DNA of 64,000 bases from an uncultured Enterobacterales bacterium (GTDB lineage Bacteria; Myxococcota_A; UBA796; CAZKWG01), in assembly GCA_964615375.1 (NCBI GenBank), contig CAZTOW010000012.1, positions 1 through 64,000 of the forward strand, written 5' to 3'. A model generated the notes under the pieces. That model was not told the DNA's origin, did not search any database, and saw only the letters and a program-made list of their open reading frames with translations. Within the stretch, counting starts at the first letter, position 1; each line of letters begins with the position of its first letter. Positions 1 to 32,653 of the stretch are shown piece after piece. The position numbers and the translations under genes were made by a program.

Positions 1-183
1 CAAGGCGCATGCCCGACCATCCTCCTCCCGCGTCAGCGGGGGGAGGTGCCGGCGAAGCCGGCGGAGGGGGGGGCGTGTCGGAGTCCCCCCCTCCGGCCCT
101 CCGGGCCACCTCCCCCCGCTGGCGCGGGAGGAGGATCAAAGCTGCAATTCCATGGCGCTTTCGTCGTAAAAGAGCCGCACCCA
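1..183. repeat. MITE-like palindromic repeat element, copy A (left end truncated by window start)
   Basis: Bases 1-183 match the reverse complement of 32430-32653 over about 180 bp with few mismatches. Ends in TIR GAGCCGCACCC (173-183); internal nested inverted repeats (CCTCCCGCGTCAGCGGGGGGAGGTG ... CACCTCCCCCCGCTGGCGCGGGAGG). Confidence 0.75.
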
Positions 184-411
184 AGAAGGTTCCGACGGAC
201 TGAATCCGCGGCGAGATTCCGATATTTGTCGGCTGCTTCAGCGCGGAGCCCGCTGAGTTCGCAGAGCTCGCGGAGGCCTGCGCGAGCGAGGGCGAGGCGG
301 GTTGGGAGCTCGTCGCCGCGCTCGGGGTGGGGGAGGGGGCGTCGCCATCTGGGGGCGGTGAGCTTGCGACGTCGGGGGCAGGCGCGGATAGATCCCCGGT
401 GGAGGTCGCCC

Positions 412-1872
412 ATGTCCGAGCACGCGGTGGTGATCGTCGGCGCGGGGCCGACGGGGATGATGCTGGCGGGGGAGCTGGCGCTGGCGGGGGTGGAGGTGGT
501 GATCCTCGAGCGGCGCTCGAACCAGGAGATCGTGGGGACGCGGGCGCTGGGCCAGAACGCGCGGACCATCGAGGTGCTGGACCAGCGTGGGATCGCGGGG
601 CGGTTCCTGGGCGCGGGCCTGGCGATGCAGGTCGGGGGCTTCGCCTGGATGCCGCTGGACATCAGCGACCTGCCCGTGCGCCACCCCTACGGCCTCGCGC
701 TCAAGCAGAGCCGCTTCGAGGAGATCCTGGCGGAGTGGGTGCGCGAGCTGGGGGTGCCGACCCTCCACGGCGTCGAGGTGACGGGCTTCGCCCAGGACGA
801 GGCGGGCGTCACGGTGGAGGTCGCCGGCGGGCCCGCCCTCCGCGCCCGGTATCTGGTGGGCTGCGACGGGGGGCGCAGCCTGGTGCGCAAGACGGCGGGG
901 ATCGCGTTCCCGGGCTCCGACGCGACGATGAGCTTCCTCCTGGCGGAGGCCGAGATGGACGCCGCCCCGCCCTGGGGCCTGCACCGTGACACCGTCGGGG
1001 TGCTGGCCTTCGGCAAGGCCGAGGACGGCCGGTCCGTGCGCATGGTGGTGCGCGAGGAGCGCGTGGGGAGCAAGGGCCCGCCCACCCGCGAGGACCTGAG
1101 GGCCACGCTGATCGCGAAGTACGGCACCGACTTCGGCCTGCACGAGCCCGCGTGGATCTCGCGCTTCACCGACGCGACGCGGCAGGCGGCCACCTACCGC
1201 GACCGGCGCGTGCTCCTGGCGGGCGACGCGGCCCACGTTCACGCCCCGCTGGGCGGCCTCGGCCTCAACCTGGGCGTGCAGGACGCCGTGAACCTCGGCT
1301 GGAAGCTGGCGAGCGTGGTGAACGGCGCGGCCCCGGAGAGCCTGCTCGACACCTACCAGGCCGAGCGCCACCCGGTCGGCGCCCGCGTGCTGCAGATGTC
1401 GATGGCCCAGGTCCCGCTGATGCGCTCCGACGATCGCGTCGAGGCCCTCCGCGCCGTGCTGGCTGAGCTCCTGCGCCTGGGCGAGGCCCGCACCTTCCTC
1501 GGCGCGCAGATGTCCGGCCTCGACGTCCGTTACGAGCTCGGCGGCGCGCACCCGCTCGTCGGCCGCGCCATGCCCGACCTCGACCTCGTCACCCCCGAGG
1601 GCGAGGCGCGCGTGTACACGTTGCTCCACGCCGCGCGGCCCGTGCTCCTGGAGCTCGGCGAGGCGTCCGCGCTCGAGCTCGGCGCCTGGCGGGGGAGGGT
1701 CCGGCAGGTGCGGGCCCGCTACAACGGAGAGTGGAGGCTCGTGGGCGCGGGGGTCGTGTCGGCGCCGGTCGCGGCGCTGATCCGCCCCGATGGGCACGTC
1801 GCCTGGGTGAGCGAGGACGGGACGGACGCGGGGCTGGCCGACGCGCTGCAGCGCTGGTTCGGGGCGCCGTAG
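412..1872 (+). CDS. FAD-dependent aromatic-ring monooxygenase (PheA/TfdB-type)
   Basis: VVIVGAGPTGMMLAGELA dinucleotide-binding motif, DGGRSLVR, and GDAAHVHAPLGGLGLNLGVQDAVNLGWKLA FAD fingerprint. Start placed at the ATG giving MSEHAVV; the longer upstream ORF extension overlaps the repeat element. Confidence 0.85.
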   Translation: MSEHAVVIVGAGPTGMMLAGELALAGVEVVILERRSNQEIVGTRALGQNARTIEVLDQRGIAGRFLGAGLAMQVGGFAWMPLDISDLPVRHPYGLALKQSRFEEILAEWVRELGVPTLHGVEVTGFAQDEAGVTVEVAGGPALRARYLVGCDGGRSLVRKTAGIAFPGSDATMSFLLAEAEMDAAPPWGLHRDTVGVLAFGKAEDGRSVRMVVREERVGSKGPPTREDLRATLIAKYGTDFGLHEPAWISRFTDATRQAATYRDRRVLLAGDAAHVHAPLGGLGLNLGVQDAVNLGWKLASVVNGAAPESLLDTYQAERHPVGARVLQMSMAQVPLMRSDDRVEALRAVLAELLRLGEARTFLGAQMSGLDVRYELGGAHPLVGRAMPDLDLVTPEGEARVYTLLHAARPVLLELGEASALELGAWRGRVRQVRARYNGEWRLVGAGVVSAPVAALIRPDGHVAWVSEDGTDAGLADALQRWFGAP

Positions 1873-1940
1873 ACATTCGCGCGCCCCGGCCAGGGGTGGC
1901 TCTGCCCCGTTCGACGCGGTAAACTGGCCTGGGAGGCTCC

Positions 1941-3716
1941 ATGACGCTCGCCCTGCTCTCGCTGCTCGGCTGCGAGCCGACCACCGGCAAGGTCCCCGGC
2001 GTGGTCGACAGCGCCCTCGACACCGCCAGCCCCCAGGACAGCCAGCCCTCCGAGGACCCCGACCCCGCGATCGAGCCCGTCCCCGGCACGGATCTGGACG
2101 ACGAGGGCTGCCCCACGCTCTACCAGCAGGACCGCCTCCCCGTCTTCGAGCTGGAGATCACCGAGGAGGACTGGGCGGCCTTGGAGGCTGACTACAGCAC
2201 GGGCGTCGAGCAGTACCACCCGACGACCTTCCTCTACCGGAACGCCTCCGGCGGCGAGCTGCGCGTCGAGGACGCCAGCGTGCGCCTGCGCGGCAACCCC
2301 GGCTTCTCCTGGATCGGCGAGAAGATGCAGTTCGGGATCGCGTTCAACGAGGAGGACCCGGAGGGGCGCTTCCTCGGGCTGCGCCACCTGAGCCTGGACG
2401 CCGTCTGGTACGAGCCGTCCATGCTGCGCGACCGGCTGGCCTACGCCTACCTGCGCCGCCTGGGCGTGCCCGCCCCCTGCGCCAACAACGCGGAGCTCTG
2501 GGTGAACGGCGCCTATTACGGTCTCTACAAGAATGTAGAGTACCCCGACCGGGAGTGGGTGGAGCGCGTCTTCGGCGACGACGACGCGACGGGCGTGCTG
2601 TGGAAGTACGGCAGCGATCCGACCGTCAACGCCGAGAGCGCCGACGCCGCGCACATGGCCGAGTTCTGGGCCAACACCAGCGTCGCCTGGCAGGAGGCTC
2701 ACACCGACCTGGACGCCAACGTGCTGGAGTGGGCGGGGGAGGTCGTGCTCCCGCAGAACGACGGCTACTGGTGCTGCAACCACAACTTCTACTTGTATGA
2801 GCACCCCACGCGCGGCATCCTGTTCCTGCCCTGGGACATGGACTTCGCGTTTGACGACACGCCCTACTTCGCCGACCCCAACACCTTCTATCGTGACTCC
2901 AACTACCAGCCGCACCTGGACGCCGTCAGCGCCGACCCCACCTGGGGCCCGGTCTTCCTGTCCGCGCTGCGGGAGGCGGTGGACGCCTATGACCCCGACC
3001 TGATGCAGGGCTGGCTGGACGAGTGGCAGGCGCAGATCGCGGCCTCCCACGCGGCCGATCCCCACACGCCCCACTCGGTGCAGACCCAACAGGACGCCTA
3101 CGAGAGGTTGCGCGCCTATCTGCGCAACCGCCACGCCTGGATGGACGCCTGGGTGCGCTGTCGAGAGGGCGAGGGGGACGGGGACGGCGACGGCGTCGGC
3201 CCCTGCTCTGACTGCGACGACGCGGACGCCAGCATCTACCCCGGGGCGACGGAGACCTGCGACGGACGCGACACCGACTGCGACGGGCTCGTGGACGACG
3301 CGCTCGGCTGCGACACCTGCGACGCCTACAGCTTCGAGTCCGGCGAGTTCCGTCTCTGCACGACGCCGATGAGCTGGGAGGACGCGCAGGCCGCCTGCGA
3401 GGCCGAGGGGGGCGAGCTCGGGTTCCCTCTCAGCTCTGGCGAGTGGTACGTGTACTGGTTGCACCAGTACTGGCAGGAGCTCGCCTGGCTCGGCGTCAGC
3501 ACCTGGTGGCTCGGGGCCACCGACGCGGCCAGTGAGGGGACCTGGCTCACGCCGAGCGGAGAGCCCGCTTCCCCCTGGGCGAGCTGGGGCGCGGGCACCC
3601 CCAACGGCGGCGCCTCCGAGCAGTGCGCCATGACCAGCCCGTACACCTGGACCTGGGACGACGCGGACTGCGCGCTGGAGAAGCCCGCGTTCTGCCGGGT
3701 GGAGCTGGGGCCTTGA
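1941..3716 (+). CDS. CotH kinase-family lipoprotein with C-terminal MopE-like Cys/Asp motif and C-type lectin domain
   Basis: Lipobox LLSLLGC. CotH-like core (LRDRLAYAYLRRLGVPAPCANNAELWVNGAYYGLYKNVE). Acidic GEGDGDGDG linker. CSDCDDADASIYPGATETCDGRDTDCDG motif. C-type lectin signature (WLGATDAASEGTW ... CAMTSPYTWTWDDADC). Confidence 0.8.
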   Translation: MTLALLSLLGCEPTTGKVPGVVDSALDTASPQDSQPSEDPDPAIEPVPGTDLDDEGCPTLYQQDRLPVFELEITEEDWAALEADYSTGVEQYHPTTFLYRNASGGELRVEDASVRLRGNPGFSWIGEKMQFGIAFNEEDPEGRFLGLRHLSLDAVWYEPSMLRDRLAYAYLRRLGVPAPCANNAELWVNGAYYGLYKNVEYPDREWVERVFGDDDATGVLWKYGSDPTVNAESADAAHMAEFWANTSVAWQEAHTDLDANVLEWAGEVVLPQNDGYWCCNHNFYLYEHPTRGILFLPWDMDFAFDDTPYFADPNTFYRDSNYQPHLDAVSADPTWGPVFLSALREAVDAYDPDLMQGWLDEWQAQIAASHAADPHTPHSVQTQQDAYERLRAYLRNRHAWMDAWVRCREGEGDGDGDGVGPCSDCDDADASIYPGATETCDGRDTDCDGLVDDALGCDTCDAYSFESGEFRLCTTPMSWEDAQAACEAEGGELGFPLSSGEWYVYWLHQYWQELAWLGVSTWWLGATDAASEGTWLTPSGEPASPWASWGAGTPNGGASEQCAMTSPYTWTWDDADCALEKPAFCRVELGP

Positions 3717-3731
3717 GCCGTGGATCAGCCC

Positions 3732-4262
3732 TCACCGAGGCCGGATCCGCACCACGCGCGTCCCCGCGACCAGATCGTGCAGACAGCGGCGGTCCTTGCG
3801 GAAGATGAACAGGCTGTCGAGAATCAGCGCGGGCAGCGGCAGCAGCCCGCAAGAGGCCGCGCTCAGCACCCAGTACACCAGGAGCGGCAGCAGACCGCGC
3901 AACAGGAGCCGGTTCCCGGGCTTCTCTTCGCCCAGGATGTCTACGACCTGGAGCCCCAGGAGCCGCTTCCCCACGCTCTGCCCGGAGCGCCAGAGCAGGT
4001 AGAGCTGAAGGACCTGCCAGAGCGCGTAGGGCGCGATCAGGAGGGGCAAGGCGGCGTCGCTCGCGTCGAACACGTCGTTGGTGAGCCTCCACTCGCCCAC
4101 CTGCGAAGAGGCGAACATGCTCCCGATCGCCGCCAGGCTCGCGCCGCCCATGTCCACGAGCGCGGCCAGGAGCCGCTCCCCCCGGCTCGCCAGCTCGGAC
4201 AGATCGGGCTCGGGATCGGCCAGGACCGCCAGCGGAGGCTGATAGGGGTTGTGCTCGGCCAT
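3732..4262 (-). CDS. RDD family membrane protein
   Basis: GQSVGKRLLGLQVVD ... CLHDLVAGTRVV RDD motif with hydrophobic segments. The overlapping + strand ORF is a GC-frame artefact. Confidence 0.7.
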   Translation of the reverse strand: MAEHNPYQPPLAVLADPEPDLSELASRGERLLAALVDMGGASLAAIGSMFASSQVGEWRLTNDVFDASDAALPLLIAPYALWQVLQLYLLWRSGQSVGKRLLGLQVVDILGEEKPGNRLLLRGLLPLLVYWVLSAASCGLLPLPALILDSLFIFRKDRRCLHDLVAGTRVVRIRPR

Positions 4263-4314
4263 GACGCATCATAGCCCAGATGCATCGAGGCCCTCGTCGC
4301 CCGGGGAGGTCGTC

Positions 4315-5388
4315 ATGCTCACCATCCTCTTCTTCGCCTGCCACGCTGACGGCCCCGCGGTCGTCTCCGCCGAGGAGCTGGGCATCGTCAGCCAGAGCGA
4401 GGCCATCCAGGGGCGCGACGGCGGTCAGAGCGCGCGGCTGTGGGGGCGCTCGGTCTGGACCTACGGCGACACCGTGCTGAACGTGAACGACGTGGACGGA
4501 CGGAACTGGCACCACAACTCGGTGTCCTGGACCGAGGATCTGGACGCCACCGACGGCGTGGACGATCTCACCGAGCCCCTGGACGAGGTCGGCGCGCCCG
4601 CCTACCTCATCGCCCCCACCGACGACGAGCGCACGTTGAACGAGGCCCACTGGGACGACGGCGACTGCGAGGAGCCCTGCGGCGCCCGCTGGGCCGTCTG
4701 GCCCGGCAGCCCCGTCTGGGACGAGCAGAACCAGCGCGCGATCCTGTTCTATGGCCTCATCTACGCCGAGCCCGGGGACTTCAATTTCGAGGGGAAGGGG
4801 AGCTCCATCGCCCTCTGGACCGACCCCGACGGCCCCGCCGAGCGCCCCACCATCGGCCGCGTCGCCGATCATCCGGACCTGATCTGGGCCGAGGACGAGG
4901 GCGAGCTCGGCAACGGCTCCGCCATCGAGGACGGCTACCTCTACACCTTCTCCTGCCCGCAGCGCGGGTGGAGCCGACCCTGCGGGCTCGCCCGCGCGCC
5001 CCTGGATGACGTGCAGGATCACGACGCCTGGCGCTTCTGGGATGGCCGGGCCTGGGGCGAGGACATGGACGCGGCCGAGGGCCTCTTCGACGGCGCGCCC
5101 ATCCTCTCCCTCGACTACAACCCCTACCTGAATTCCTGGCTCGTGGTGTACTCGCCCACGCTGAGCAGCCAGATCGTCGCGCGCACCGCGCCCGAGCTCA
5201 CCGGCCCCTGGTCGCGCGAGGCCGTGCTCTACGAGCCCACCGGCGCGGACGAGGACCCCTACGACGCCGTCGCCCACGCCGAGCTCGCCGAGGACGACGG
5301 GCGCGTGATCTACGTCACCTGGTCGCGGAGCAACGGGGTCGGCTGGTTCGGGACGGAGTTCGCGCTGCTGCGGGTGGAATTCGAGTGA
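4315..5388 (+). CDS. hypothetical secreted lipoprotein
   Basis: Start at MLTILFFAC (lipobox). Diverse composition; W/D-rich globular protein; no domain confidently recognised. Confidence 0.6.
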   Translation: MLTILFFACHADGPAVVSAEELGIVSQSEAIQGRDGGQSARLWGRSVWTYGDTVLNVNDVDGRNWHHNSVSWTEDLDATDGVDDLTEPLDEVGAPAYLIAPTDDERTLNEAHWDDGDCEEPCGARWAVWPGSPVWDEQNQRAILFYGLIYAEPGDFNFEGKGSSIALWTDPDGPAERPTIGRVADHPDLIWAEDEGELGNGSAIEDGYLYTFSCPQRGWSRPCGLARAPLDDVQDHDAWRFWDGRAWGEDMDAAEGLFDGAPILSLDYNPYLNSWLVVYSPTLSSQIVARTAPELTGPWSREAVLYEPTGADEDPYDAVAHAELAEDDGRVIYVTWSRSNGVGWFGTEFALLRVEFE

Positions 5389-5565
5389 GGGGCGCTCCTG
5401 TCGGTCTCTGGGGTTGGCTGATGGCTGAGGTTCTGGTGAGTGTTCTGTCGTGGAAGTGTGCTTTAAAGAAGTAAGATCGCCATACGGCCATACGGTGTCA
5501 GGTTGTTCTCATTTCATTTTTCCTGCTTCTTGAACTCTCGCGACGCGCCTGGCATGTAAGGAGCG

Positions 5566-6606
5566 ATGAGCTCTCGCCTCTCCGCCGTCCTCGACCTCGA
5601 CCTCGCGCAGGCTCGCGCACAATGGGAGCGGGTGCGCGCGCGCGAGCGACGGTCGCGGCAGGAGCCCTTCCTGCCGATCGAGGTGATCCTCTGCTACGGC
5701 CTGTTCCGGTTGATCGACCCCCACCGCTTCGGCGGGAGCAACATCGGGTCCATCCCCGCAGAGGTGGCCGCCCTGGCCTCCACCCTGCAACGGTCCCCAG
5801 GGTCGCTCACCAACAAGATGTTGAACCTGGATGGATCGCGGCCGAACGCGGCGAAGGACGAGCCCGAGCTCTTCCTCCGCCTGTCGGTCGAGCCCGATCG
5901 CTTCGCGGCCCTCTACCTGTTGGTGATCCACGCCGCGCGCGAGGCCGGCCTCGACGAGCGCCAGGTCCCCGACCTGCTGGAGGGCCTGGAGGTAGACGAG
6001 ATCCCGATGCTCGGGCAGGACGAGCTCGGGAGCCGCGAGCTCGCCCTGATCGCCGATGAGCAGCGCGACGAGATCCAACGGATACACACAGACTTCGATC
6101 TCCCTGAACCTGCGACGACGCGGATCGTCGAGCAGCGTGTCCGCCTCGGCCAGCACCGCTTCGCGACGGCGGTGCTGCGGAACTATGACCATCGCTGCGC
6201 GTTCTGCGGCTTCGCCCCCAGGCGCCTGGCGCGCCATCGGATGCTGGTCGCCTCCCACATCAAGCCCTGGGCGGTCAGCAGCCCGCGCGAGCGTCTCGAC
6301 GTCCGCAACGGCATCGCCGCCTGTCCGATGCACGACAGCGCCTTCGACTCGGGGTTGATCACGGTCAATGGCGGCCTGCGCGTTCACCGCGCCGATCTGC
6401 TGGATCGCAGCATCCTGGAGGACGCCAGAGTCGGGTACTACTTCGAGGAGCCCGCTCTCCAGGACCGGCTGCTCCTCCCCGAGGGAGGCCGACGGCCGGC
6501 GGACATCTATCTGAAGTACCACCGCGAGCAGCGCTTCCGCGGCAAGGCTGATTGGGAGCTCGCGAAGGCCGGTGTCCGCCCCCTGCGCCGCCCCCCCCAC
6601 CCCTGA
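5566..6606 (+). CDS. HNH endonuclease (HNH_2-type, restriction-endonuclease-like) with N-terminal domain of unknown function
   Basis: C-terminal HRCAFCG ... ASHIKPW ... NGIAACPMHDSAFDSGLI HNH motif. Preceded by a 175-bp AT-rich spacer (5389-5565). GC slightly below neighbours. Confidence 0.75.
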   Translation: MSSRLSAVLDLDLAQARAQWERVRARERRSRQEPFLPIEVILCYGLFRLIDPHRFGGSNIGSIPAEVAALASTLQRSPGSLTNKMLNLDGSRPNAAKDEPELFLRLSVEPDRFAALYLLVIHAAREAGLDERQVPDLLEGLEVDEIPMLGQDELGSRELALIADEQRDEIQRIHTDFDLPEPATTRIVEQRVRLGQHRFATAVLRNYDHRCAFCGFAPRRLARHRMLVASHIKPWAVSSPRERLDVRNGIAACPMHDSAFDSGLITVNGGLRVHRADLLDRSILEDARVGYYFEEPALQDRLLLPEGGRRPADIYLKYHREQRFRGKADWELAKAGVRPLRRPPHP

Positions 6607-6609
6607 CCC

Positions 6610-7779
6610 TCACCCCCGCCGCAGCCGTAGGATCACCGGCGTCGCCAGCACCGCCAACCCCGACGACAGCGCCAGCGCCACCGGCGCCCCCTGCCGCTCC
6701 CACAACCACCCCAGCAGGCTCCCCCCCGTCGCCGCCCCGAGCCCCTGCACCAGGTGGAAGACCCCAAACGCCGCGCCCCGCCGCTCCGCGGGCGCCGTGT
6801 CCGCGATCAGGCTGGACATCACCCCCTGCGTCAGCCCCATGTGCAGGCCCCAGAGCGCCACGCCGACGATGACGCCCGCGAGCCCCAGCGGCAGGGCGAG
6901 CGCCAGGTTGGCCAGGACGAAGCAGCCGAAGCCGGCGGCGATGACGGCGCTCCGCCCCACGCGGTCGGAGGCCCAGCCGGCGGGCCAGGAGGAGAGGGCG
7001 TAGACGGCGCTCATCTCGGCCAGGAGCAGGGGGGTGCCGACCTCGCCCAGGCCCGCCTCGATGCCGCGGACCAGCAGCATCCCCTCGCCGTAGCGGGCGA
7101 AGGCCAGGGCGCCGACGACGGCGATGGCCAGCCAGAAGCGCCCGCCCAGGCCGCCGAGGCCTCCCCAGGGGGCGCGCCGGCTGGGCGCCCGCGACTCGGG
7201 CTCGCGCACGCCCAGGACCAGGAGCGCGACCGCGAAGACGGCGGGGACCACCGCCCAGCCCAGGACGGCCCGCACGTCGCCGCCGCTGGCCAGCATGAGC
7301 GCGCTCGCCAGCACCGGCCCGCCGATGGCGCCGACGTTGTCCAGGCTCTGGCGCAGGCCGTAGGCCCTCCCCCGCAGCGCGGGCGGCGTGACGTCGGCCA
7401 CCAGCGCGTCCCGCGGCGCCCCGCGCACGCCCTTGCCCAGGCGGTCCAGGAACCGTGCCCCCAGCACGAGCCCCGGCGTCGTGGCGTAGGGGAAGAGCGG
7501 GCGCACCAGGGCGGAGAGCCCGTAGCCAGCGACGGCGACCCACTTCCGGTGCCCCAGCCGGTCAGAGAGCGCGCCGGAGAAGACCTTGACCAGGCTGGCC
7601 GTGCCCTCGGCGATCCCGTCGATGAGCCCGACCATGGCCGGCCCGGCGCCCAGCGGGCCCATCAGGAAGGCCGGCAGGACCGCGTGCATCATCTCGGTGC
7701 CCAGGTCCATGAACAGGCTGACCAGCCCCAGCACGATGACGGCGCGTGGGATCCGCGTCGAAGCCGTCTCTTCGCTCAC
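6610..7779 (-). CDS. MFS transporter
   Basis: Multiple TM helices; MFS signature (GALSDRLGHRKW, GLVSLFMDLGTEM); about 12 hydrophobic spans. Confidence 0.8.
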   Translation of the reverse strand: MSEETASTRIPRAVIVLGLVSLFMDLGTEMMHAVLPAFLMGPLGAGPAMVGLIDGIAEGTASLVKVFSGALSDRLGHRKWVAVAGYGLSALVRPLFPYATTPGLVLGARFLDRLGKGVRGAPRDALVADVTPPALRGRAYGLRQSLDNVGAIGGPVLASALMLASGGDVRAVLGWAVVPAVFAVALLVLGVREPESRAPSRRAPWGGLGGLGGRFWLAIAVVGALAFARYGEGMLLVRGIEAGLGEVGTPLLLAEMSAVYALSSWPAGWASDRVGRSAVIAAGFGCFVLANLALALPLGLAGVIVGVALWGLHMGLTQGVMSSLIADTAPAERRGAAFGVFHLVQGLGAATGGSLLGWLWERQGAPVALALSSGLAVLATPVILRLRRG

Positions 7780-8708
7780 TCGAGCCCCTCCGCCGCCAGC
7801 CAGTCCAGCGCGTCCGCCAGGCCATCATCCAGCGAGGGCTGGGCGATCTCCCCCCAGAGCGAGCGCGCCAGGGAATGATCCCCGATCAGCGCCTCTATCT
7901 CGCCAGCCCGCCGAGGGAGCGCGCCCACCTGCACCAGTCCCGGGTCGGCGCCGGCCAGCCGGAAGACCCGCGCCACCACGTCGCGCACGCTGGCCACCTC
8001 GCCCCCGCCCAGGTTCAGCACCCGCCCCAGCGCGCCGGGGTGCGCGCCCGCCGCCACGATGCCCTCGGCCAGGGCGTCCATGTGGTTCCACTCGCGGAGC
8101 TGCGCCCCGTCGGTCATCGCGAAGGGCTCGCCGGCCAGGGCCGCGCGGGCGGCGCTGGCGATGACGCTCTGACGGTCGCCGGGCCCGTATCCGCGGAAGG
8201 GTCGTACAACCGTGGCTTGTAGTCCGGCGCTGCGGGTGAGCCCCAGCACCCAGGCCGTCGCCGCCACCTTCAGCGCCGAGTAGGGCGAGACCGGCTCCGG
8301 GGCCTGGTCCTCGCGGAAGGGCGGGGGCAGGGTGCCGTACTCCTCGCAGGTCCCCGCCGAGACCAGGCGCGCCCCCACCGCCAGGCAGGCCCGCGCCACC
8401 GCCGCCGTCCCGTCCAGGATGCCCGGCCGCAGGCGCTCGTAGAGGTGGGGGTCGCGGCGCAGGTCCACCGGGCTGGCCAGGTGGAAGACCACGGCGGGGC
8501 GCGTGGCGCCGATGACGGCCTCGGCCTCGTCGGGCAGGCTCATCGGGTGGGCGATGACGCCCTCGGGCGGCAGGCGCCGGCACCCGGTCCCGTGGACCTC
8601 GGCCCCGAGCTCCAGCAGCAGCCGCGCCACCGCCCCGCCGAGGAAGCCCGACGCGCCGGTGACCATCACCCTGACCCCGAGCCATCGGGTGGCGGAAGCC
8701 CACTCCAC
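7776..8708 (-). CDS. NAD-dependent epimerase/dehydratase family protein
   Basis: VTGASGFLGGAVARLL Rossmann motif; YSALK active-site motif. The true start may be the internal Met at about 8666. Stop overlaps the MFS start. Confidence 0.8.
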   Translation of the reverse strand: MEWASATRWLGVRVMVTGASGFLGGAVARLLLELGAEVHGTGCRRLPPEGVIAHPMSLPDEAEAVIGATRPAVVFHLASPVDLRRDPHLYERLRPGILDGTAAVARACLAVGARLVSAGTCEEYGTLPPPFREDQAPEPVSPYSALKVAATAWVLGLTRSAGLQATVVRPFRGYGPGDRQSVIASAARAALAGEPFAMTDGAQLREWNHMDALAEGIVAAGAHPGALGRVLNLGGGEVASVRDVVARVFRLAGADPGLVQVGALPRRAGEIEALIGDHSLARSLWGEIAQPSLDDGLADALDWLAAEGLE

Positions 8709-8776
8709 TGGGTACGACTCCGCGCACGAGGATACACCCTCGAGGGTCGGGCTTCGCCGAAGCCCAGGAGGCGCCC

Positions 8777-9466
8777 ATGATCCTGCTCGCCCTGCTGTTG
8801 AGCGCGTGTCGGTTCGAGGCCAGCTCGAAGATCAGCGACGACTCCGCCAGCGAGGGCGAAGGGGAGGGCGAGGGCGAGGGCGAAGGGGAGGGCGAAGGCG
8901 AAGGCGAGGGCGAGGGCGAGGGCGAGGAGCCCGACCCCGAGGACGTGGACGACGACGGCGACGGGATCACCGAGAACGACGGCGACTGCGACGACACCGA
9001 CGGCACGGTCTACCCGGGGGCCGAGGACGGCTGCGACGGCGTGGACGAGGACTGCGACGACGAGGTGGACGAGGACGCCTGGGCCGACGACGCCAACGAG
9101 CCGAACGACGACAGCGAGACCGATCTCGGCACCCTGGCCGAGGACGAGGTCATCAGCGCCTCCGGGATCCTGCACAACGACGAGGACGTGGACCTCTTCC
9201 TCTTCGACATGGAGGACTCGAGCTGGGGCTCCTTCGTGCTGACCGTGCGGCTGTCCGGCGTGCCCGACGACGCGGACTACGGGTTGAAGCTGGAGTTCCT
9301 GGACGGGGACGAGGTCATCGACCAGGTGGAGGGCGGGGGCACGCTCTCGATCGAGCTGGAGGACACGCTGGCCTACGAGGACGGCGGGACCTACCGGGTC
9401 ACCATCGACGCCGACAGCGGGGCGGACTGCAGCCGCAGCTACCTGCTCAGCCTGGATCTCGAGTAG
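8777..9466 (+). CDS. acidic lipoprotein with (GE)n linker, MopE-like Cys/Asp motif and pre-peptidase C-terminal-like domain
   Basis: RBS CAGGAGG upstream. Lipobox LLLSAC. (GE)x13 encoded by a (GAGGGC)n microsatellite. CDDTDGTVYPGAEDGCDGVDEDCDDE motif. Confidence 0.7.
   Translation: MILLALLLSACRFEASSKISDDSASEGEGEGEGEGEGEGEGEGEGEGEGEEPDPEDVDDDGDGITENDGDCDDTDGTVYPGAEDGCDGVDEDCDDEVDEDAWADDANEPNDDSETDLGTLAEDEVISASGILHNDEDVDLFLFDMEDSSWGSFVLTVRLSGVPDDADYGLKLEFLDGDEVIDQVEGGGTLSIELEDTLAYEDGGTYRVTIDADSGADCSRSYLLSLDLE
8853..8930 (+). repeat. (GAGGGC)n hexanucleotide microsatellite encoding (GE)13 linker
   Basis: Seen directly; inside the lipoprotein gene just after the lipobox. Confidence 0.9.
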
Positions 9467-9468
9467 AG

Positions 9469-11109
9469 ATGCCCGATCTCGACACGATCGTCATCGGCTC
9501 GGGGGCGGGCGGGCTCACGGCCGCGCTGGCGCTGGCGCAGGCGGGGCAGCGCGTGCTCGTGCTGGAGCAGCACTACCTCCCCGGCGGCTGGACCCACAGC
9601 TTCCCCCTGCACGGCCACCTCTTCAGCCCGGGCGTCCACTACATCGGCGGGCTGGGGCCGGACGGGGACTCGCGGCGCATCTACGAGGGCCTGGGCGTCT
9701 CGGGCGATCTGGTCTTCTGCGAGCTGAACCCGGACGGCTACGACCACATCCGCGTGGGCGAGCGGCGCGTCGATCTGGTCAAGGGCCGGGACCGCATGGC
9801 CGCGGTCCTGGGCGAGCAGTTCCCCGAGGATCGCGAGGGAATCGCCGGCTACCTGCGCGCGCACACCGAGATCGACCAGGGCGTGCGCGCGCTGAACGCC
9901 GCCCGCGGCCCCTGGGAGAAGGTCGGCGCCGTCGCCCGCCACCCGGCCCTGCCGCTGTGGGGGCTGGGCAGCCTGGACCGCATGCTCCGCCACTACGTGC
10001 GGGATCCGGTGGCGCGCATGGCGCTCTCCGCCCAGTGCGGGGATCACGGGCTCCCCCCGTCGCGGGCCCCGGCGGCGCTGCAGGCCGGGCTGTCCGCGCA
10101 CTACTTCGACGGGGCCTGGTACCCCATGGGCGGGGCGCGCTCCCTCCCGCGGGCCTTCATCCACGCCCTGCACCGGGCGGGCGGCGAGATCCGGGTAAAA
10201 GCCAGGGTGGAGAAGATCCTGGTCGAGCGGGCCGGCGGCGGCTGGAAGGCCAGCGGGGTCCAGCTGGCCGGGGGCGAGCGCATCACGGCCGCGCGGGTCA
10301 TCTCCAACGCCGACCCCGGCGTCACCTACGGGCGGCTGGTGGACCCCGAGGCCCAGGGCCCGGCGATCCGAAAGAAGCTCGGCGGCGCGCGCTGGTCGGT
10401 CTCCTGCCTCAGCCTGTTCATGGCGGCGGAGATCGACCCCGTCCAGCTCGGCCTGGACTCAGGGAACTACTGGCTCTTCGACGACGCTGACCCGGAGTCG
10501 GCCTTCCGCTTCGACGGGGGCCTGGACGGGCTGCTGCGCATGCCCGCCCTCTTCCTCACGGTCACCACGCTCAAGGACCCCACCAAGCTCAAGGGCGGGG
10601 TCCACACGATGGAGGCCTTCGCGCTGGTGCCTTACGCGCCGTTCGCCGCCTGGGCCTCGGGCGAGCCCGGGGAGCGGGGAGCCGATTACGAGGCCCTCAA
10701 GCAGCGCTTGAAGGACCGGATGATCGAGCGGCTCTCGCGCGTGCTGCCGGACCTGCGGGAGCGGCTCCACTTCGCCGAGCTCGGCACGCCGGTCACCAAC
10801 CACTACTACTGTGAGGCGACCGCGGGCTCCATGTACGGCACGGAGAAGACCATGAGCCAGCTGGGGCCCTGGTCCTTCCCCATCGAGAGCGAGATCGCCG
10901 GCCTCTACCTCTGCGGAGCCAGCACGCTCTCCCACGGCGTCATGGGGGCCACGATGTCCGGGCTGGTGGCGGCGGGGCGGGTGCTGGGCCTGCGCCGGCA
11001 GGAGCTGCTGCGCCAGCAGGGGCCCGCGCTGCGCACGGTGCCGGCCGACCACCCCGAGCGCTGGCCCGAGGACCTCCAGGCCCGGCTCAGGCGACCCGAC
11101 GAGGCCTGA
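9469..11109 (+). CDS. NAD(P)/FAD-dependent oxidoreductase, phytoene-desaturase (CrtI) family
   Basis: DTIVIGSGAGGLTAALALAQAGQRVLVLEQ FAD-binding motif. ATG lies 2 nt after the upstream stop. The long N-terminal extension in the ORF track (from 8503) is antisense to the epimerase and rejected. Confidence 0.8.
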   Translation: MPDLDTIVIGSGAGGLTAALALAQAGQRVLVLEQHYLPGGWTHSFPLHGHLFSPGVHYIGGLGPDGDSRRIYEGLGVSGDLVFCELNPDGYDHIRVGERRVDLVKGRDRMAAVLGEQFPEDREGIAGYLRAHTEIDQGVRALNAARGPWEKVGAVARHPALPLWGLGSLDRMLRHYVRDPVARMALSAQCGDHGLPPSRAPAALQAGLSAHYFDGAWYPMGGARSLPRAFIHALHRAGGEIRVKARVEKILVERAGGGWKASGVQLAGGERITAARVISNADPGVTYGRLVDPEAQGPAIRKKLGGARWSVSCLSLFMAAEIDPVQLGLDSGNYWLFDDADPESAFRFDGGLDGLLRMPALFLTVTTLKDPTKLKGGVHTMEAFALVPYAPFAAWASGEPGERGADYEALKQRLKDRMIERLSRVLPDLRERLHFAELGTPVTNHYYCEATAGSMYGTEKTMSQLGPWSFPIESEIAGLYLCGASTLSHGVMGATMSGLVAAGRVLGLRRQELLRQQGPALRTVPADHPERWPEDLQARLRRPDEA

Positions 11110-26327: not shown

Positions 26328-26370
26328 GAGAGCTCTTGGCAGCCGCGAGGGCCCGGTTTACGGGGAGGGG

Positions 26371-27165
26371 ATGTGGCTCCTCCTCCTCGGCGTCTTCAGC
26401 TGCAGCCCCTCTAACGAGGGCGTGCCCCCCGCGCAGGCGCCGCCCGCCGTGGAGCAGGCGCCTCCCCAGGCCGAGGTCGTCGAGCCGAAGGCGGCCACGG
26501 GCGAGGCGGCCACCGTGGACCTCACGCTGGGGGAGGGCTGGGGGGCCGTGTTCTGGCGCGACGGGGTGGCCTCGCGCTCGGGCGGCGGGGACGGGCTGCT
26601 GGGCCCGGCCGGCGCGGGCTCGGCGAAGCTCACGGGGGCGAGCGGGCCCTGCGGCGCGGTGTTGGAGGGGGCCCCCGCGCGCGCGGCCGTGGCGCTGCCC
26701 GCGGGGAAGACCCCGCCGACCCTGCCAGAGTCCCCGGCCACGCGCGCCGATCTGGTGGAGCGCGCCGCCTGGCGCCTGGACGAGGTGCTGCCGCCGCGCG
26801 ACCGCTTCTCCCCGGCCATCGAGTCGCCCGACCCGGCCCTGCAGCGCGGCGTGCGCGTGGCGAGCGTGGCCAAGACCCGGCGGACCGGCGCGCCCCCGGT
26901 GCTGCTGAGCTCGGGCGCGCGGGACTGCGTGGGCGTGGTGGCGGCGCTGGACCAGGAGGCCTCCAAGACCCTCTCCTGGGACCAGATCCCCGAGCTCTGC
27001 GAGCCGCTCTCCCTGCTGCCCGCCGCCGACCTGGACGGGGACGGGGCGCGGGAGGTGGTGGGCTACAGCGAGGCCCGGGTCATGCTCTGGCGCATCGAGG
27101 AGAAGCCCGGCGTGTTCCGCCTGATCCGCGCGGGTGACTGGCGCTGTGAGGACAGCGCGAAGTGA
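26371..27165 (+). CDS. hypothetical lipoprotein
   Basis: Lipobox LLLGVFSCS; Ala/Pro-rich; stop overlaps the murJ GTG start (GTGA). Confidence 0.6.
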   Translation: MWLLLLGVFSCSPSNEGVPPAQAPPAVEQAPPQAEVVEPKAATGEAATVDLTLGEGWGAVFWRDGVASRSGGGDGLLGPAGAGSAKLTGASGPCGAVLEGAPARAAVALPAGKTPPTLPESPATRADLVERAAWRLDEVLPPRDRFSPAIESPDPALQRGVRVASVAKTRRTGAPPVLLSSGARDCVGVVAALDQEASKTLSWDQIPELCEPLSLLPAADLDGDGAREVVGYSEARVMLWRIEEKPGVFRLIRAGDWRCEDSAK

Positions 27166-29719: not shown

Positions 29720-30908
29720 GCTGGCCGGGGAAGAGGCGCTCGTAGACGCTCAGCAGGGCGCGCTGCTGGTGGTGCCAGGCCAGCACCCGCTCGACCCGCT
29801 CGCGGCCGAGCTGCCCGAGGCGCGCGCGGCGGGCGGGATCGTCGGCCAGCGCCTGCACGGCGTCCGCCAGGGCCTCGGCGGATCCGCCCGGAGCGTAGAG
29901 CGCCGCGTCTCCGCCCGACACCCGGGACTCCGTGAGATCGAAGGAGACGACGGCCTTCCCCAGCGCCATGTACTCCATCAGCTTGTTCATGGTGGAGTGG
30001 TCGTTGAGCCCGCCCGGCGGATCGGGCTGCACGCAGACGTCGCAGGCCGAGAGCGCGGCCAGCACGTCCTTCCAGGGCACGCGCCCGGTCATCTTCACCG
30101 CGTCGGTGAGCCCGTACTGATCGCGCAGCCGGCCCAGGCTGTCGAAGGAGTCGCCGGTCCCCACCATCACGAAGCCGATGTCCTTGCGCCCGCGGTCGTT
30201 GCGCAGGATGCGCGCGAGCTCCAGGAAGAGGTCCACGCCGTCCTGGGGGTTCATGTTCCCCAGGTAGCCGACCACCGTGCGGCCGAGCGCCCGCACCGCC
30301 GGATCGGGCTCGGTGGGCGGGAAGTCGCTGAGCCGCGGCCCGTTGCGCACCACCGTCACCTCCTCGGGGCGCTTGCCCCCGCGGTCCAGCGCGACCTTGC
30401 GGTAGGTCTCGTTGGTGGAGATGACGTGGTCCGCCAGCTTGAAGGTCACCTTCTCCATGGCCTTGACCATGGGGATGAGGCGGGGGTGGGCCTCGCCGAA
30501 GCGCCACTCGAAGAGCTCGGGGACCAGATCGTGGTGGTCGAAGACGAACTTCACGCCCAGCGGCTTGTAGGGCGCCGCCACGGTCCACAGCAGGTCCGGC
30601 GGGTTGGCCGCGTGGATGGCGTGGAAGCCGTGGCGCCGGTACACCAGCGCGGCGAGCGCGCTCATGCTGCTGAGCGAGACCGCGTACTCGCCCAGGTGCG
30701 CGGCGAAGCCCTCGCTGAGCGTGGGCACGGCGTAGCGGTAGACGTGGATGCCGGCCACCTCCTCGTGCCAGCTCTCGCCCTTGCCCCTCGGCGAGATCAC
30801 GCAGACCTGCGCCCCGGCGTCTCGAAGCGTGGCGGTCTCCCGCTTGATCCGGTTGTCGAAGGTGTAGGGGAGGTCCTGGGAGATGAACAGCACTTTGAGC
30901 ATGGGCAC
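29706..30908 (-). CDS. glycosyltransferase family 4
   Basis: GT-B GT4 C-terminal motif (NKLMEYMALGKAVVS, E..G.VVE.G); N-terminal KVLFISQDLPY. Confidence 0.85.
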   Translation of the reverse strand: MPMLKVLFISQDLPYTFDNRIKRETATLRDAGAQVCVISPRGKGESWHEEVAGIHVYRYAVPTLSEGFAAHLGEYAVSLSSMSALAALVYRRHGFHAIHAANPPDLLWTVAAPYKPLGVKFVFDHHDLVPELFEWRFGEAHPRLIPMVKAMEKVTFKLADHVISTNETYRKVALDRGGKRPEEVTVVRNGPRLSDFPPTEPDPAVRALGRTVVGYLGNMNPQDGVDLFLELARILRNDRGRKDIGFVMVGTGDSFDSLGRLRDQYGLTDAVKMTGRVPWKDVLAALSACDVCVQPDPPGGLNDHSTMNKLMEYMALGKAVVSFDLTESRVSGGDAALYAPGGSAEALADAVQALADDPARRARLGQLGRERVERVLAWHHQQRALLSVYERLFPGQLNAG

Positions 30909-30987
30909 GCCCCCGCTTGAAGTACCCCGCGCCCACGCCCCGGGCCAAGCGGGCCGCCGAGTGCTGGCGAAGGCTTGACCAGCGCGC

Positions 30988-32337
30988 TCAGCCCCCGCCC
31001 GTGTCCAGCTGCTCCGCGTCGAACCAGGTCAGACAGGTCTGGTCCGACAGCGCGTACACGCAGACCCGCCGGTCGCTCTCGCGCAGGAAGAGCGTCGCGT
31101 CGTCCGGCGAGAGGTTCAGGTTGGTGGGGATGAAGGGCGTCGCCAGCGTGGTCGCGACGGCGGCGCGCAGGTCGAGCGCGTACAGCCCCGGCTCCTCGTA
31201 GAAGGTGTCCGGGTGGAGCACGTAGGCCATCGCCCCGTCGCTGGAGAGCGCATAGTGGTCCAGGTAGAGCCCGGGGCCCTCGACGGCGCGGAAGGTGCCG
31301 GTCTCCAGGTCGAAGAGGGTGGTCGGCGCCTCGTTGAAGGCGCCGTCCACCAGGATGACCTGACCGTCCGGGGCGACGCTGAAGCGCGGCAGGGTGTCCC
31401 CGTACTCCGCGAAGCGGTAGCTGAGGTCCGCCCCGTCGATGATCATCAGGTGGTACTCCGCGCTGTCCTCGGCGGGCATCTGCGCGGGGTCCTCGAACAG
31501 GCTCTCGTCCCCCTGCGAGACGCTGTAGAAGGCCACCGCCGTCCAGCCGTCCGAGGAGACCGCCACGGGCCCGAAGCCGGGGAGGTTGCGCTCGAAGCCC
31601 TCCTCTCCCTCCAGGAGCGAGATCACGGACACGGGGTCCCGCGAGCAGCTCGTGGGCGCCATGAAGGCGCGCTGGGCCAGCGGCATGACGGAGAGCGTCG
31701 CGGCGCAATTCGGGACGGAGAAGCTGGTCCCCTGCCAGCTGGCCGTGTCGATGACCTCCACGGTGCTGATGGGGGACTCGCCGTGCCAGACCTCGGCCAG
31801 CACGACGAAGAGGCGCGTATCCAGGATGTCCACGTCCACGATGCGCCGGTCGAAGGCGCGGTCGTAGAGGACCAGGCCCGTGGCCGGATCGAGGACGCGG
31901 AGGTGGGCGTCGTCGTGGGTGACCAGCAGCCCGTCGGTGGCGCTCATGTCGAGCTTCAGCACATCCTTCGACGCGCTCTCCACCGGGGCCTCCCAGAGCT
32001 CCGCGCCCGTGCTCACGTCCACGGCGACCACGGTGGCCGCGCTCTCCTGTCCGACGAAGATGGTTCGGCTCGTGTTGGCGAAGGCGAGGACCGAGGGGTC
32101 GCGCGGCGAGAGCAGCTCGAGCGTGCCCGTCTGCGTCCACCCCACCGCCAGCCCGTCCCCGTGGGAGAAGACCACGTAGGAGCCATCGACGCTCACGGCG
32201 ATGTCCCCGACGCCCAGCGTCACCCCGCCTTCTTGCGAGCCCGCGCTCTGCTGGTTCGGGTTCTCACCCCCACCGCAAGCCAGGATGAGACCGCCGATGC
32301 CCACGCCGACGAGGACGAGAGGATGGTGTACGCGCAT
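30988..32337 (-). CDS. hypothetical beta-propeller-like lipoprotein
   Basis: Lipobox GGLILAC. Repeated beta-strand-rich segments. Start placed at MRVHH; an upstream Met at 32358 is also possible. Confidence 0.6.
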   Translation of the reverse strand: MRVHHPLVLVGVGIGGLILACGGGENPNQQSAGSQEGGVTLGVGDIAVSVDGSYVVFSHGDGLAVGWTQTGTLELLSPRDPSVLAFANTSRTIFVGQESAATVVAVDVSTGAELWEAPVESASKDVLKLDMSATDGLLVTHDDAHLRVLDPATGLVLYDRAFDRRIVDVDILDTRLFVVLAEVWHGESPISTVEVIDTASWQGTSFSVPNCAATLSVMPLAQRAFMAPTSCSRDPVSVISLLEGEEGFERNLPGFGPVAVSSDGWTAVAFYSVSQGDESLFEDPAQMPAEDSAEYHLMIIDGADLSYRFAEYGDTLPRFSVAPDGQVILVDGAFNEAPTTLFDLETGTFRAVEGPGLYLDHYALSSDGAMAYVLHPDTFYEEPGLYALDLRAAVATTLATPFIPTNLNLSPDDATLFLRESDRRVCVYALSDQTCLTWFDAEQLDTGGG

Positions 32338-32429
32338 GTTCTCTCCAAGAGGACCCACCCGATGCCACGATACTAAACACCGGAGCGGTGATCGCCTCCC
32401 GCCGCCGCGGAATTGCCCTGAAAAGGGTC

Positions 32430-32653
32430 GGGTGCGGCTCCTTTACGACGACGAAAACGCCATCGAGTTGCAGCTTTCATCCACCTCCCGCGCCAGCGGG
32501 GGAGGTGGCCCGGAGGGCCGGAGGGGGGACTCCGACACGAGCTCCCCCCTCCGCCGGCTTCGCCGGCACCTCCCCCCGCTGACGCGGGAGGAGGAGGATT
32601 GGGCAGGCGCCCTTGATCCGACCAACCACCTCGACGCAGAAGAGCCGCACCCA
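32430..32653. repeat. MITE-like palindromic repeat element, copy B (complete, inverted relative to copy A)
   Basis: 11-bp TIRs GGGTGCGGCTC (32430-32440) and GAGCCGCACCC (32643-32653). Interior is the reverse complement of bases 1-183 with few mismatches. Intergenic. Confidence 0.75.

Follow-up and report, generated by a model that had tools for sequence, protein, structure and literature searches.

A probable ISKra4-type MITE whose core is an inverted pair of triplex-type repeat modules, present in two copies in a GC-rich bacterial genome

ISCasp2 and ISCasp3 are insertion sequences (IS) of the ISKra4 group ('p-MULT 4') in the Mutator superfamily, which encodes a DDE transposase; the group is characterised by inverted repeats (IRs) of 18–39 bp, direct repeats (DRs) of 8–9 bp and promoter-proximal targeting, and ISKra4, ISCasp2/3 and others insert 13–17 bp upstream of sigma-A promoters (Guerillot et al. 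2014, PMC3942029). According to Table S1 of that study, ISCasp3 has a length of 1734 bp, an IR of 18/18 and a DR of 9, while ISCasp2 has an IR of 19 and a DR of 9. Both end in ...CTAAAAGAGCCGCACCC. A 2024 review of prokaryotic MITEs mentions none of ISKra4, IS256 and Mutator (PMC10969869). The GC-rich BoxC/PIT/TMECO repeats of Proteobacteria are a separate class, capable of triplex formation, for which no association with mobile elements was found (Holder et al. 2015, PMC4666352).

The window, i.e., the entire 64-kb stretch of DNA that was analysed, contains a pair of inverted repeats (Table 1), which the original prediction had described as near-identical reverse complements, both intergenic, with the left end of the first copy cut by the window. 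All of these features are borne out. Local alignment of copy A with the reverse complement of copy B yields 188 columns, 169 of which are identical (90%), together with 11 mismatches, 8 gap columns and one 50-nt core stretch without differences, and a repeat search found this pair to be the longest inverted repeat of the window. Both copies are outside called genes and 32.2 kb apart, and the portion missing from copy A includes its left terminal inverted repeat (TIR). The end positions, previously set at 183 and 32653, had to be corrected to 182 and 32652. Copy B is located between divergent genes, one for a 449-aa protein with a lipoprotein-like N-terminus (start 32337, minus strand) and the other heparinase II/III-like (start 32698, plus strand), while the distance from copy A to the downstream gene, for a FAD-binding monooxygenase (412–1872), is 229 bp. 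The same element end faces the nearer downstream gene in both cases, and a consensus scan revealed no sigma-70 consensus promoter beside either copy.

Table 1. Positions in the window of the two element copies, their termini, the flanks of copy B and the core modules.
Feature	Position	Strand	Remarks
MITE copy A	1..182	+	first ~37 nt cut off by window start; 169/188 columns identical to copy B
MITE copy B, complete, 223 bp	32430..32652	-	exact terminal 11-mer and alignment with copy A
Sites of 11-mer GGGTGCGGCTC	172-182; 32430-32440; 32642-32652	-; +; -	exact match
Copy A right TIR	159..182	-	outward-in GGGTGCGGCTCTTTTACGACGAAA; first 15 nt equal the ISCasp3 inverted repeat
Copy B TIR, right end in element orientation	32430..32453	+	GGGTGCGGCTCCTTTACGACGACG
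Copy B TIR, left end in element orientation	32629..32652	-	GGGTGCGGCTCTTCTGCGTCGAGG
Copy B putative decayed 9-bp duplication, left half	32421..32429	.	AAAAGGGTC; matches right half 6/9
Copy B putative decayed 9-bp duplication, right half	32653..32661	.	AAAGGTTTC
Copy A module 1	21..73	+	CCTCCTCCCGC-GTCA-GCGGGGGGAGG, TG, GCCGGC-GAA-GCCGGC, GGAGGGGGGGG
Copy A module 2, inverted	85..134	-	second hairpin GGCCC-GGA-GGGCC
Copy B module 1	32544..32594	-	identical to copy A module 1 over 50 nt
Copy B module 2, inverted	32484..32528	+	

The TIRs had been proposed to be 11 bp long. This is correct for their perfect portion, an 11-mer whose three occurrences in the 64 kb are all at element ends, but not for the TIR as a whole, since the imperfect repeat runs to about 24 bp: the two TIRs of copy B agree at 11/11 of the terminal positions and at 19 of the first 24. 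The terminus GGGTGCGGCTCTTTT is of the ISKra4 type, and is the same as in the published inverted repeats (18–19 bp) of ISCasp2 and ISCasp3. Fifteen positions of the 18-bp ISCasp3 IR are matched in copy A and 11–13 in copy B, and the IRs of 18–39 bp with a conserved terminal C (5'-GGGTGC...GCACCC-3') that define the ISKra4 group are present in the element. In Calothrix PCC 6303, plasmid NC_019752.1 harbours an element of 1734 bp that terminates on either side in GGGTGCGGCTCTTTTAGA and has the 9-bp duplication ATATGATTT. Its product (WP_015201118.1) is annotated as 'ISKra4-like element ISCasp3 family transposase' and matches NF033572 (E value 3.6e-124). A second intact IS copy with the same termini, and with the duplication AAATTGATT, was found in a plasmid of Nostoc carneum (AP018183.1). 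An autonomous partner family with matching TIRs therefore exists in the form of ISCasp2/ISCasp3 and the Nostoc relative. The results from tblastn analyses indicate no ISKra4 transposase in the 64-kb window, and none among the compared genome loci except L178 and L179.

The flanks of copy B agree at 6/9 positions, and the chance of at least 6 matches at this spacing in the window is 0.021. Metagenome sequences searched with the pattern TIR-N185-215-TIR gave 50 matching stretches, which after removal of duplicates included eight with 9/9 and one with 8/9 duplications. The eight relatives with perfect duplications, all AT-rich and 9 bp, are 207–236 bp long and have the same termini. The elements in this set show extended TIRs and unrelated cores of 43 to 75% GC. 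The termini thus recur elsewhere and bound elements with 9-bp duplications, the reverse of the situation (no target-site duplications, no conserved termini elsewhere) in which the original prediction was to be given up. The exact element was not found beyond its two copies by protein search, plasmid blastn or blastn of genome loci. Logan contigs end within the element or close to it, as would be expected of a repeat, although breaks of this kind could also come from the palindromic core.

In comparison with ISCasp3 and ISCasp2, the window element has the same terminus, near-symmetrical inverted repeats and a putative 9-bp AT-rich target duplication (6/9 in copy B), and the placement is likewise intergenic and promoter-proximal insofar as both window copies are in 5' intergenic positions, with no consensus promoter detected. 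It differs in its length of 223 bp, as opposed to 1734–1773 bp, in having no transposase gene, in showing no similarity beyond the termini, and in its host, which has a 72% GC genome and is not a cyanobacterium. It also shares with prokaryotic MITEs such as Correia, Nezha, Chunjie and QMITE the size class, the intergenic place, a strongly folding core, TIRs in common with an IS family and a putative target duplication (decayed in copy B), but the IS family is a different one and the core consists of two copies of a repeat that is dispersed across phyla. The IS-type termini, the duplications of the relatives and the flanks of copy B all support the earlier proposal of a non-autonomous MITE. In toto, we place at roughly 80% the probability that the element is an ISKra4-type non-autonomous MITE, mobilised in trans, with a core made of an inverted pair of triplex-type modules. 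The mobilising enzyme would be an ISCasp2/ISCasp3-like DDE transposase from the Mutator superfamily (ISKra4 group, 'p-MULT 4'), which would bind the TIRs over ~18–24 bp and move the element in the IS256/Mutator manner. Its targets would be AT-rich sites with the rough consensus A-W-N-T-S-A-N-W-T. In a genome of 72% GC, these are to be found in 5' intergenic regions, and it is there that both copies would have inserted. Because the copies have diverged by 10% and the duplication is decayed, the insertions are suggested to be old and probably inactive.

The element's core does not derive from a transposase. Four of the six frames of the 223-bp sequence contain stops and two are open, one of which, of 73 aa, matched no protein at an E value <= 0.001. 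The internal palindromes noted previously are real (RNA fold -161.9 kcal/mol, z = -9.9; DNA fold -82.5 kcal/mol, z = -8.2), but their nature, given as nested palindromes, is better described as two inverted copies of a separate triplex-type module of ~50 nt. From 5' to 3', the module consists of CCTCCCC, a variable loop or stem extension, GGGGAGG, TG, a GNA-triloop hairpin with an arbitrary stem, and GGAGGGG. The class-II order on one strand, i.e., pyrimidine, purine and mirror-purine tracts, is seen in all four window modules, and no free-standing module exists elsewhere in the 64 kb.

This block order of pyrimidine tract, purine tract and reverse-Hoogsteen purine tract is also that of BoxC/PIT/TMECO, which are likewise GC-rich, multicopy and mostly intergenic, have no strand bias and form inverted ('palindromic') pairs. 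However, the tracts of the module (CCTCCCC/GGGGAGG/GGAGGGG) differ from those of the TMECO consensus, CCCTCNCCC N3-6 GGGNGAGGG N3 GGGNGAGGG, and its second loop is a GNA-triloop hairpin of 13–25 nt instead of 3 nt. It consequently lies beyond the 1–6-nt loop limit of the ITxF search, as well as beyond the 0–10 nt of Hoyne et al. (2000). Furthermore, BoxC/PIT/TMECO have been seen only in Proteobacteria, whereas the module is found in at least seven phyla, and the window modules are situated inside a transposable element. One strand of the module may fold into a class-II intrastrand purine-motif triplex (G.G-C, A.A-T) in which the hairpin would serve as the second loop; alternatively, the two inverted modules might pair with each other to give a hairpin or cruciform of ~110 nt. 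By analogy with what has been reported for BoxC/TMECO, the core is most likely a structure-forming passenger that could stall polymerases or promote local instability.

A total of 143 copies of the module were found in 109 genome loci, versus 0–1 in shuffles. They are distributed over 47 genomes, often with several copies per genome, and the taxa comprise Chloroflexota, Dormibacterota, Alphaproteobacteria, Myxococcota/Bradymonadales, Planctomycetota, Firmicutes and Rhodothermales. The modules are dispersed singly, sometimes arrayed, and mostly intergenic, with neither a strand bias nor an orientation bias relative to neighbouring genes. The stem of the second hairpin has 28 distinct sequences and is paired in 41 of 68 unbiased candidates, as against 2 after shuffling, and the hairpin loop is GAA, GCA, AAA, GTA or GGA in 133/147 modules. 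Among 119 unique pairs, 98 have equal G-run lengths in the two purine tracts, where permutation predicts 39, counts in which related copies are non-independent observations; by genome, the figure is 38/47, compared with 17 expected and a maximum of 27 in 5000 permutations. Three-way covarying variants are CCTCCCT/AGGGAGG/GGAGGGA (e.g., L023 and L108) and CCTTCCCCC/GGGGGAAGG/GGAAGGGGG (L070). Since covariation of the three tracts across 47 genomes is as expected for an intrastrand purine-motif triplex, this is apparently the structure that the module adopts; some copies, e.g., in Asticcacaulis, might conceivably form a G-quadruplex or a three-way junction instead. We tentatively suggest, at somewhat worse than even odds, that the module may represent an undescribed cross-phylum class of triplex repeats, with a hyperstable mini-hairpin as second loop and strands kept in register by selection, of which the MITE is the first carrier among transposable elements. 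Some free-standing copies, e.g., in L042 and L071, are translated in frame within genes. In this respect they resemble Rickettsia palindromic elements (RPE), which are unrelated to the module in sequence and host range, and the likeness concerns modules elsewhere and not the two window copies.

An organisation similar to that of the core is known from REPINs, the REP doublets mobilised by RAYT, in which a short palindromic unit, rich in GC, is doubled in inverted orientation to form a long hairpin. If the doublet itself were the mobile unit here, with a RAYT/HUH (Y1) transposase moving it in single-stranded form, the TIRs would be incidental. The dispersal of single modules in many genomes, at times in arrays and mostly intergenic without strand bias, would agree with this, and GNA triloops are hyperstable in single-stranded DNA. 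However, the homology between copies A and B is full-length and stops exactly at the shared right TIR (the left end of copy A being beyond the window), the first 15 nt of this TIR are a published ISKra4-group IR, and the flanks resemble a 9-bp duplication, which is not a product of HUH transposition. Moreover, the doublet is embedded between ISKra4-type TIRs, the REP-typical GTAG or CGTC tag is present in 0/80 aligned modules, and the 64 kb hold no module outside the element, all of which renders a REPIN-like origin quite unlikely. We assign a slightly lower probability still, and regard as very improbable, that the sequence is not a DNA-level mobile element but a repeated structured non-coding RNA gene or a cis-regulatory RNA, e.g., a 5'-UTR element. 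RNA from either strand is predicted to fold very stably (z = -9.9 and -7.7), and the copies are upstream of genes and present the same end to the nearer one, but a sequence of palindromic design is trivially stable, and no less so as DNA. An Rfam search of the window returned nothing at gathering thresholds; sub-threshold matches, with E values of up to 10, were to generic hairpins only, mostly miRNA precursor models. The TIRs, the duplication and the identity to IS ends belong to the DNA level, modules elsewhere have no preferred orientation relative to neighbouring genes, and the covariation implies a purine-motif triplex, a structure that cannot form in RNA, as stated in the review text of Holder et al. 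(2015, PMC4666352).

The repeat pair might also mark the boundaries of an inversion generated by recombination, or of a composite-transposon-like 32-kb unit, such that the two copies would be functionally linked. Being inverted, 32.2 kb apart and 90% identical, they would in principle suffice for a RecA-mediated inversion; inversion as such had been offered as a possibility in the original prediction. Yet the inner and outer flanks of copy B still resemble each other, which is not expected after recombination between the copies; such an event would instead predict that the inner flank of copy A (AAGAAGGTT) matches the reverse complement of the outer flank of copy B, and the agreement of only 4/9 argues against it. 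To either side of copy B the GC skew is positive, the intervening genes include chromosomal housekeeping types (e.g., MurJ, a glycosyltransferase and an MFS transporter), and window positions 285–8879 are collinear, save for one indel, with a related strain (95% nucleotide identity). Inversion of the 32-kb segment is thus possible in principle but unsupported, and a functional link between the copies appears to be every bit as improbable as the RNA explanation.

For the host genome, the ISKra4-type MITE would represent ordinary selfish DNA, i.e., two old insertions in promoter-proximal intergenic regions, and the evidence is against the pair having rearranged the intervening 32 kb. With regard to the IS family, the ISKra4-group (Mutator-type) elements evidently give rise to MITEs well beyond the cyanobacteria, in bacteria from soil and freshwater, and these MITEs retain a terminus with 15 sharply conserved nt and a palindromic, AT-rich target of 9 bp. 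The core indicates that GC-rich triplex-type repeats are able to travel inside a transposon, which is relevant to the BoxC/TMECO-type repeats, whose origin and spread are so far unexplained. If the cross-phylum interpretation of the module is true, the MITE would be a concrete vehicle for the dispersal of such repeats. The three-way covariation across phyla provides a testable argument that triplex folding, beyond hairpin folding, is under selection.

The inverted, near-identical repeats originally predicted to bracket the first 32 kb of the window (copies A and B) are indeed reverse complements of one another, and a repeat search of the 64 kb returned them as its longest inverted repeat. Local alignment of copy A with the reverse complement of copy B spans 188 columns, with 169 identities, 11 mismatches and 8 gap columns, and includes an identical stretch of 50 nt. 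Exact copies of the 11-mer GGGTGCGGCTC number three in the 64 kb, each at an element end; its one-mismatch variants elsewhere in the window are at chance level. The ends lie at 182 and 32652, not at 183 and 32653 as first proposed, and the window edge truncates copy A by approximately 37 nt, so that its left terminal inverted repeat (TIR) is missing. The TIRs are present, but they are imperfect and longer than the 11 bp initially assigned, with 19 of the first 24 positions matching in copy B. The ends of copy B are GGGTGCGGCTCTTCT... and GGGTGCGGCTCCTTT..., and the right end of copy A, GGGTGCGGCTCTTTTACGACGA, agrees at 15 of 15 positions with the terminus shared with ISCasp-type elements. Both copies are located outside called genes, copy B within a 360-bp intergenic region and copy A 229 bp upstream of a monooxygenase gene.

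Features located in the window and in the compared loci
Sequence	Feature	Position	Strand	Remarks
Window	Copy A	1-182		cut by window start
Window	FAD-binding monooxygenase gene	412-1872		copy A neighbour
Window	12-nt tandem repeat, family D7	8838-8927		GAGGGCGAAGGG-like, encoding Glu/Gly, within ORF 8503-11109
Window	449-aa protein	start 32337	-	copy B neighbour 1; lipoprotein-like N-terminus
Window	Copy B	32430-32652	opposite to copy A	complete, 223 bp; divergent intergenic region
Window	Heparinase II/III-like gene	start 32698	+	copy B neighbour 2
Window	1203-aa ORF	48345-51956	-	~99- and 201-nt repeats, families D1-D6
L143 (OGCL01009226.1)	Nested mobile DNA inside ISKra4-type ends	1545-2696		metagenome contig
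L143	Second ISKra4-type MITE	1582-1813		232 bp
L143	IS30-family element	1811-2648		5'-truncated
L128	663-bp element	2260-2922		metagenome contig, ~75% GC
L128	207-bp element	9233-9439		same contig
L129, L130, L134, L135, L144	Discounted TIR-gap-TIR matches			
L185 (Logan ERR7850096)	1.7-kb insertion	5144-6850		about 100 bp at window 5430-5536
L085	Head-to-tail module array	5960-6297		period about 87 nt
L060	Head-to-tail module array	3277-3573		period about 58 nt
L090	Head-to-tail module array	~1400-2700		5326-6590 on reverse-complement strand; period about 60 nt
L042	Free-standing module in frame	6059-7300		Chloroflexi MAG
L071	Free-standing module in frame	2433-4766		Chloroflexi MAG
	In-frame module 1			E2 acyltransferase linker, ...LLPTGGEVPAKPAEGP...
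	In-frame module 2			777-aa ORF, S9-family peptidase-like by sequence appearance, ...SLLPIHGEVPAKPAEGLLLYGYG...

An autonomous partner family with matching TIRs, which the original prediction had left to be sought, emerged when annotated plasmids were searched by blastn with a 30-nt TIR consensus: ISCasp3-type elements of Calothrix and Nostoc. The Calothrix sp. PCC 6303 plasmid NC_019752.1 carries a 1734-bp element bounded by GGGTGCGGCTCTTTTAGA with the 9-bp duplication ATATGATTT, the protein of which is annotated as 'ISKra4-like element ISCasp3 family transposase'. Its relative on the Nostoc carneum plasmid AP018183.1 is 73% identical and has the same ends, with AAATTGATT as its duplication; the Calothrix and Nostoc proteins match NCBIfam NF033572 (ISKra4 family) with E values of 3.6e-124 and 2.8e-118, respectively. 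ISCasp3 (1734 bp, IR 18/18, DR 9 bp) and ISCasp2 (IR 19 bp, DR 9 bp) both end in ...CTAAAAGAGCCGCACCC (Guerillot et al. 2014, Table S1, PMC3942029). The ISKra4 group, part of the Mutator superfamily, is described as having IRs of 18-39 bp and DRs of 8-9 bp (Guerillot et al. 2014, PMC3942029), and its members, ISCasp2/3 among them, as inserting 13-17 bp upstream of sigma-A promoters (PMC3942029). An IS30 partner had been suggested by locus L143, where GGGTGCGGCTC ends enclose an IS30-family transposase, and was rejected: the IS30 copy in locus L163, 94% identical to that in L143, has its own different TIRs (GGCGGATTCAAgttcGAAGTGCAAC), and the GGGTGCGGCTC terminus was found in 0 of 14 homologous IS30 loci. 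L143 is a nest of insertions, which is why the wrong transposase was suggested at first.

Short relatives were sought by scanning a metagenome collection with the pattern GGGTGCGGCTC-N185-215-GAGCCGCACCC, which matched 50 stretches representing 43 distinct elements. Roughly half of the latter are accounted for by long perfect palindromes or by chance hits within coding-like DNA, and were not counted as MITEs. The clear subset has extended TIRs of the form GGGTGCGGCTCTTTT[AG]N[AG]ACGAC..., a GC content of 43 to 75%, and cores unrelated to one another and to that of the window element. After removal of duplicates, perfect 9-bp direct repeats flank eight metagenome elements and an 8/9 repeat flanks one; these repeats are 73% A+T with the roughly palindromic consensus A-W-N-T-S-A-N-W-T. 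The two elements of L128 lie on one contig and have ISKra4-type ends and subterminal sequence in common; ISKra4-type MITEs therefore occur as length variants in one high-GC genome.

The 9-bp flanks of copy B, AAAAGGGTC and AAAGGTTTC, agree at 6 of 9 positions; among 9-mer pairs of equal spacing in the window, 2.1% agree at least this well. Both flanks are conspicuously AT-rich against the 72% GC genome. The 10% divergence of the copies, together with this putative decayed duplication, points to old insertions. No ISKra4-like ORF was detected in the window by tblastn, and the translation of one of the element's two open frames returned no protein homologues. Identity as a known RNA family was rejected, as Rfam returned nothing at gathering thresholds, only miRNA-like hairpin noise with E values up to 10. 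The MITE interpretation is thus supported. The window copies fit the ISKra4-group family and can be named an ISKra4-group (ISCasp-like) MITE; the element is a genuine MITE of the ISKra4/Mutator type, probably now inactive. Further 223-bp copies were found neither among the compared loci, where blastn matched the core only, nor on plasmids. Neither an empty site nor the left end of copy A was recovered from related assemblies, where the Logan contigs (7 runs) stop inside or short of the element; these breaks fit a repeat, but the palindromic core would explain them just as well. Logan contigs of two different strains both start at window ~265-285, which is about 85-105 bp beyond the right end of copy A and not within it, so a further feature that breaks assemblies may lie upstream of the monooxygenase gene.

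It had also been suggested that the pair might mediate inversion of the intervening 32 kb. Inverted repeats of 223 bp and 90% identity could in principle recombine in this way, but the evidence argues otherwise. The inner and outer flanks of copy B still match each other. An exchange between the copies would predict a match of the inner flank of copy A to the reverse complement of the copy B outer flank, and these do not match (4/9). GC skew is positive on either side of copy B, and a related strain is collinear with the first 8.9 kb of the window, one indel excepted. In the Logan contig of a related strain with 95% nucleotide identity, a 1.7-kb insertion containing a TIR-domain (PF13676) gene marks a site that varies between strains, some 5 kb away from copy A. 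Elsewhere in the window, the 1203-aa ORF consists almost wholly of repeats, the Asp/Gly/Cys-rich units of which look like thrombospondin-type-3-like calcium-binding repeats.

The core is the more interesting part of the element. Its 'nested palindromes' are real and consist of two inverted copies of a ~50-nt module, which within the 64-kb window is confined to the two MITE copies. Scanning one genome per species with the central 26-mer gave at least 109 stretches, and the matches listed come from Chloroflexota, Dormibacterota, Alphaproteobacteria (Asticcacaulis, Caulobacteraceae, Devosia, Reyranella and others), Myxococcota/Bradymonadales, Phycisphaerae, Clostridia/Oscillospiraceae and Rhodothermales; a single genome often holds many copies. 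Phage carriage was rejected: among 2.9 million viral contigs, only 2 contain the 26-mer and 1 contains the TIR, and a scan of viral sequences for the IS30 protein gave nothing. A structural search identified at least 143 modules in these loci, compared with 0-1 in shuffled sequence. Outside the positions forced by the pattern, the plan is CCTCCCC, a lineage-variable loop or paired extension, GGGGAGG, TG, a second hairpin and GGAGGGG. Among the matches listed, 38 modules have a second-hairpin stem other than the pattern-forced GCCGGC, with 28 distinct stems overall; in an unbiased set of 68 candidates, the inner segment pairs into a stem of 5 bp or more in 41, versus 2 after shuffling. The second-hairpin loop is GAA, GCA, AAA, GTA or GGA in 133 of 147 modules among the matches listed; GNA triloops of the GCGAAGC type are a classic hyperstable DNA mini-hairpin. 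By crude gene calls, about two-thirds of the modules fall between genes; they show no strand bias and are somewhat enriched beside gene 3' ends. A few lie within genes and are translated in frame. The free-standing modules of two Chloroflexi MAGs, in frame in apparently intact genes, recall the Rickettsia palindromic elements, while the head-to-tail arrays in three other loci resemble BIME-like clusters of REPs.

The 3' tract of the module and the 3' arm of the first hairpin are mirror images that co-vary. Among the matches listed, 98 of 119 unique tract pairs have G-runs of equal length (3, 4, 5 or 6), compared with 39 expected by permutation, and modal lengths are equal in 38 of 47 genomes (17 expected; maximum 27 in 5000 permutations). 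All three tracts vary jointly in Clostridia (e.g., L023 and L108; CCTCCCT/AGGGAGG/GGAGGGA) and in Reyranella (CCTTCCCCC/GGGGGAAGG/GGAAGGGGG). Such sequence covariation is the pattern expected if the module folds as an intrastrand purine-motif triplex of class II (Y-R-RH; G.G-C and A.A-T triplets), a structure possible in DNA and not in RNA (literature summarised in Holder et al. 2015, PMC4666352). As alternative folds, a three-way junction works in Asticcacaulis and fails in most lineages, and a two-tetrad G-quadruplex leaves the matching G-run lengths and the co-varying pyrimidine strand unexplained. Among known motifs, the putative triplex module comes closest to BoxC/PIT/TMECO, from which it differs in sequence and in its wider phylogenetic spread. 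Its second loop is a 13-25-nt hairpin, whereas the ITxF search for triplex motifs was limited to 1-6-nt loops, and it resides here within a transposable element, whereas Holder et al. (PMC4666352) described triplex motifs without association to mobile elements. A hairpin-looped triplex module was not found described in sequence-string literature searches, Rfam or the text of Holder et al. 2015; as text strings, both module and TIR matched only unrelated eukaryotic or viral papers. The core exposes what appears to be a hairpin-looped triplex-type module conserved across phyla, and its place in the MITE suggests that non-B-DNA repeats of a widespread class may have a transposon as their vehicle.
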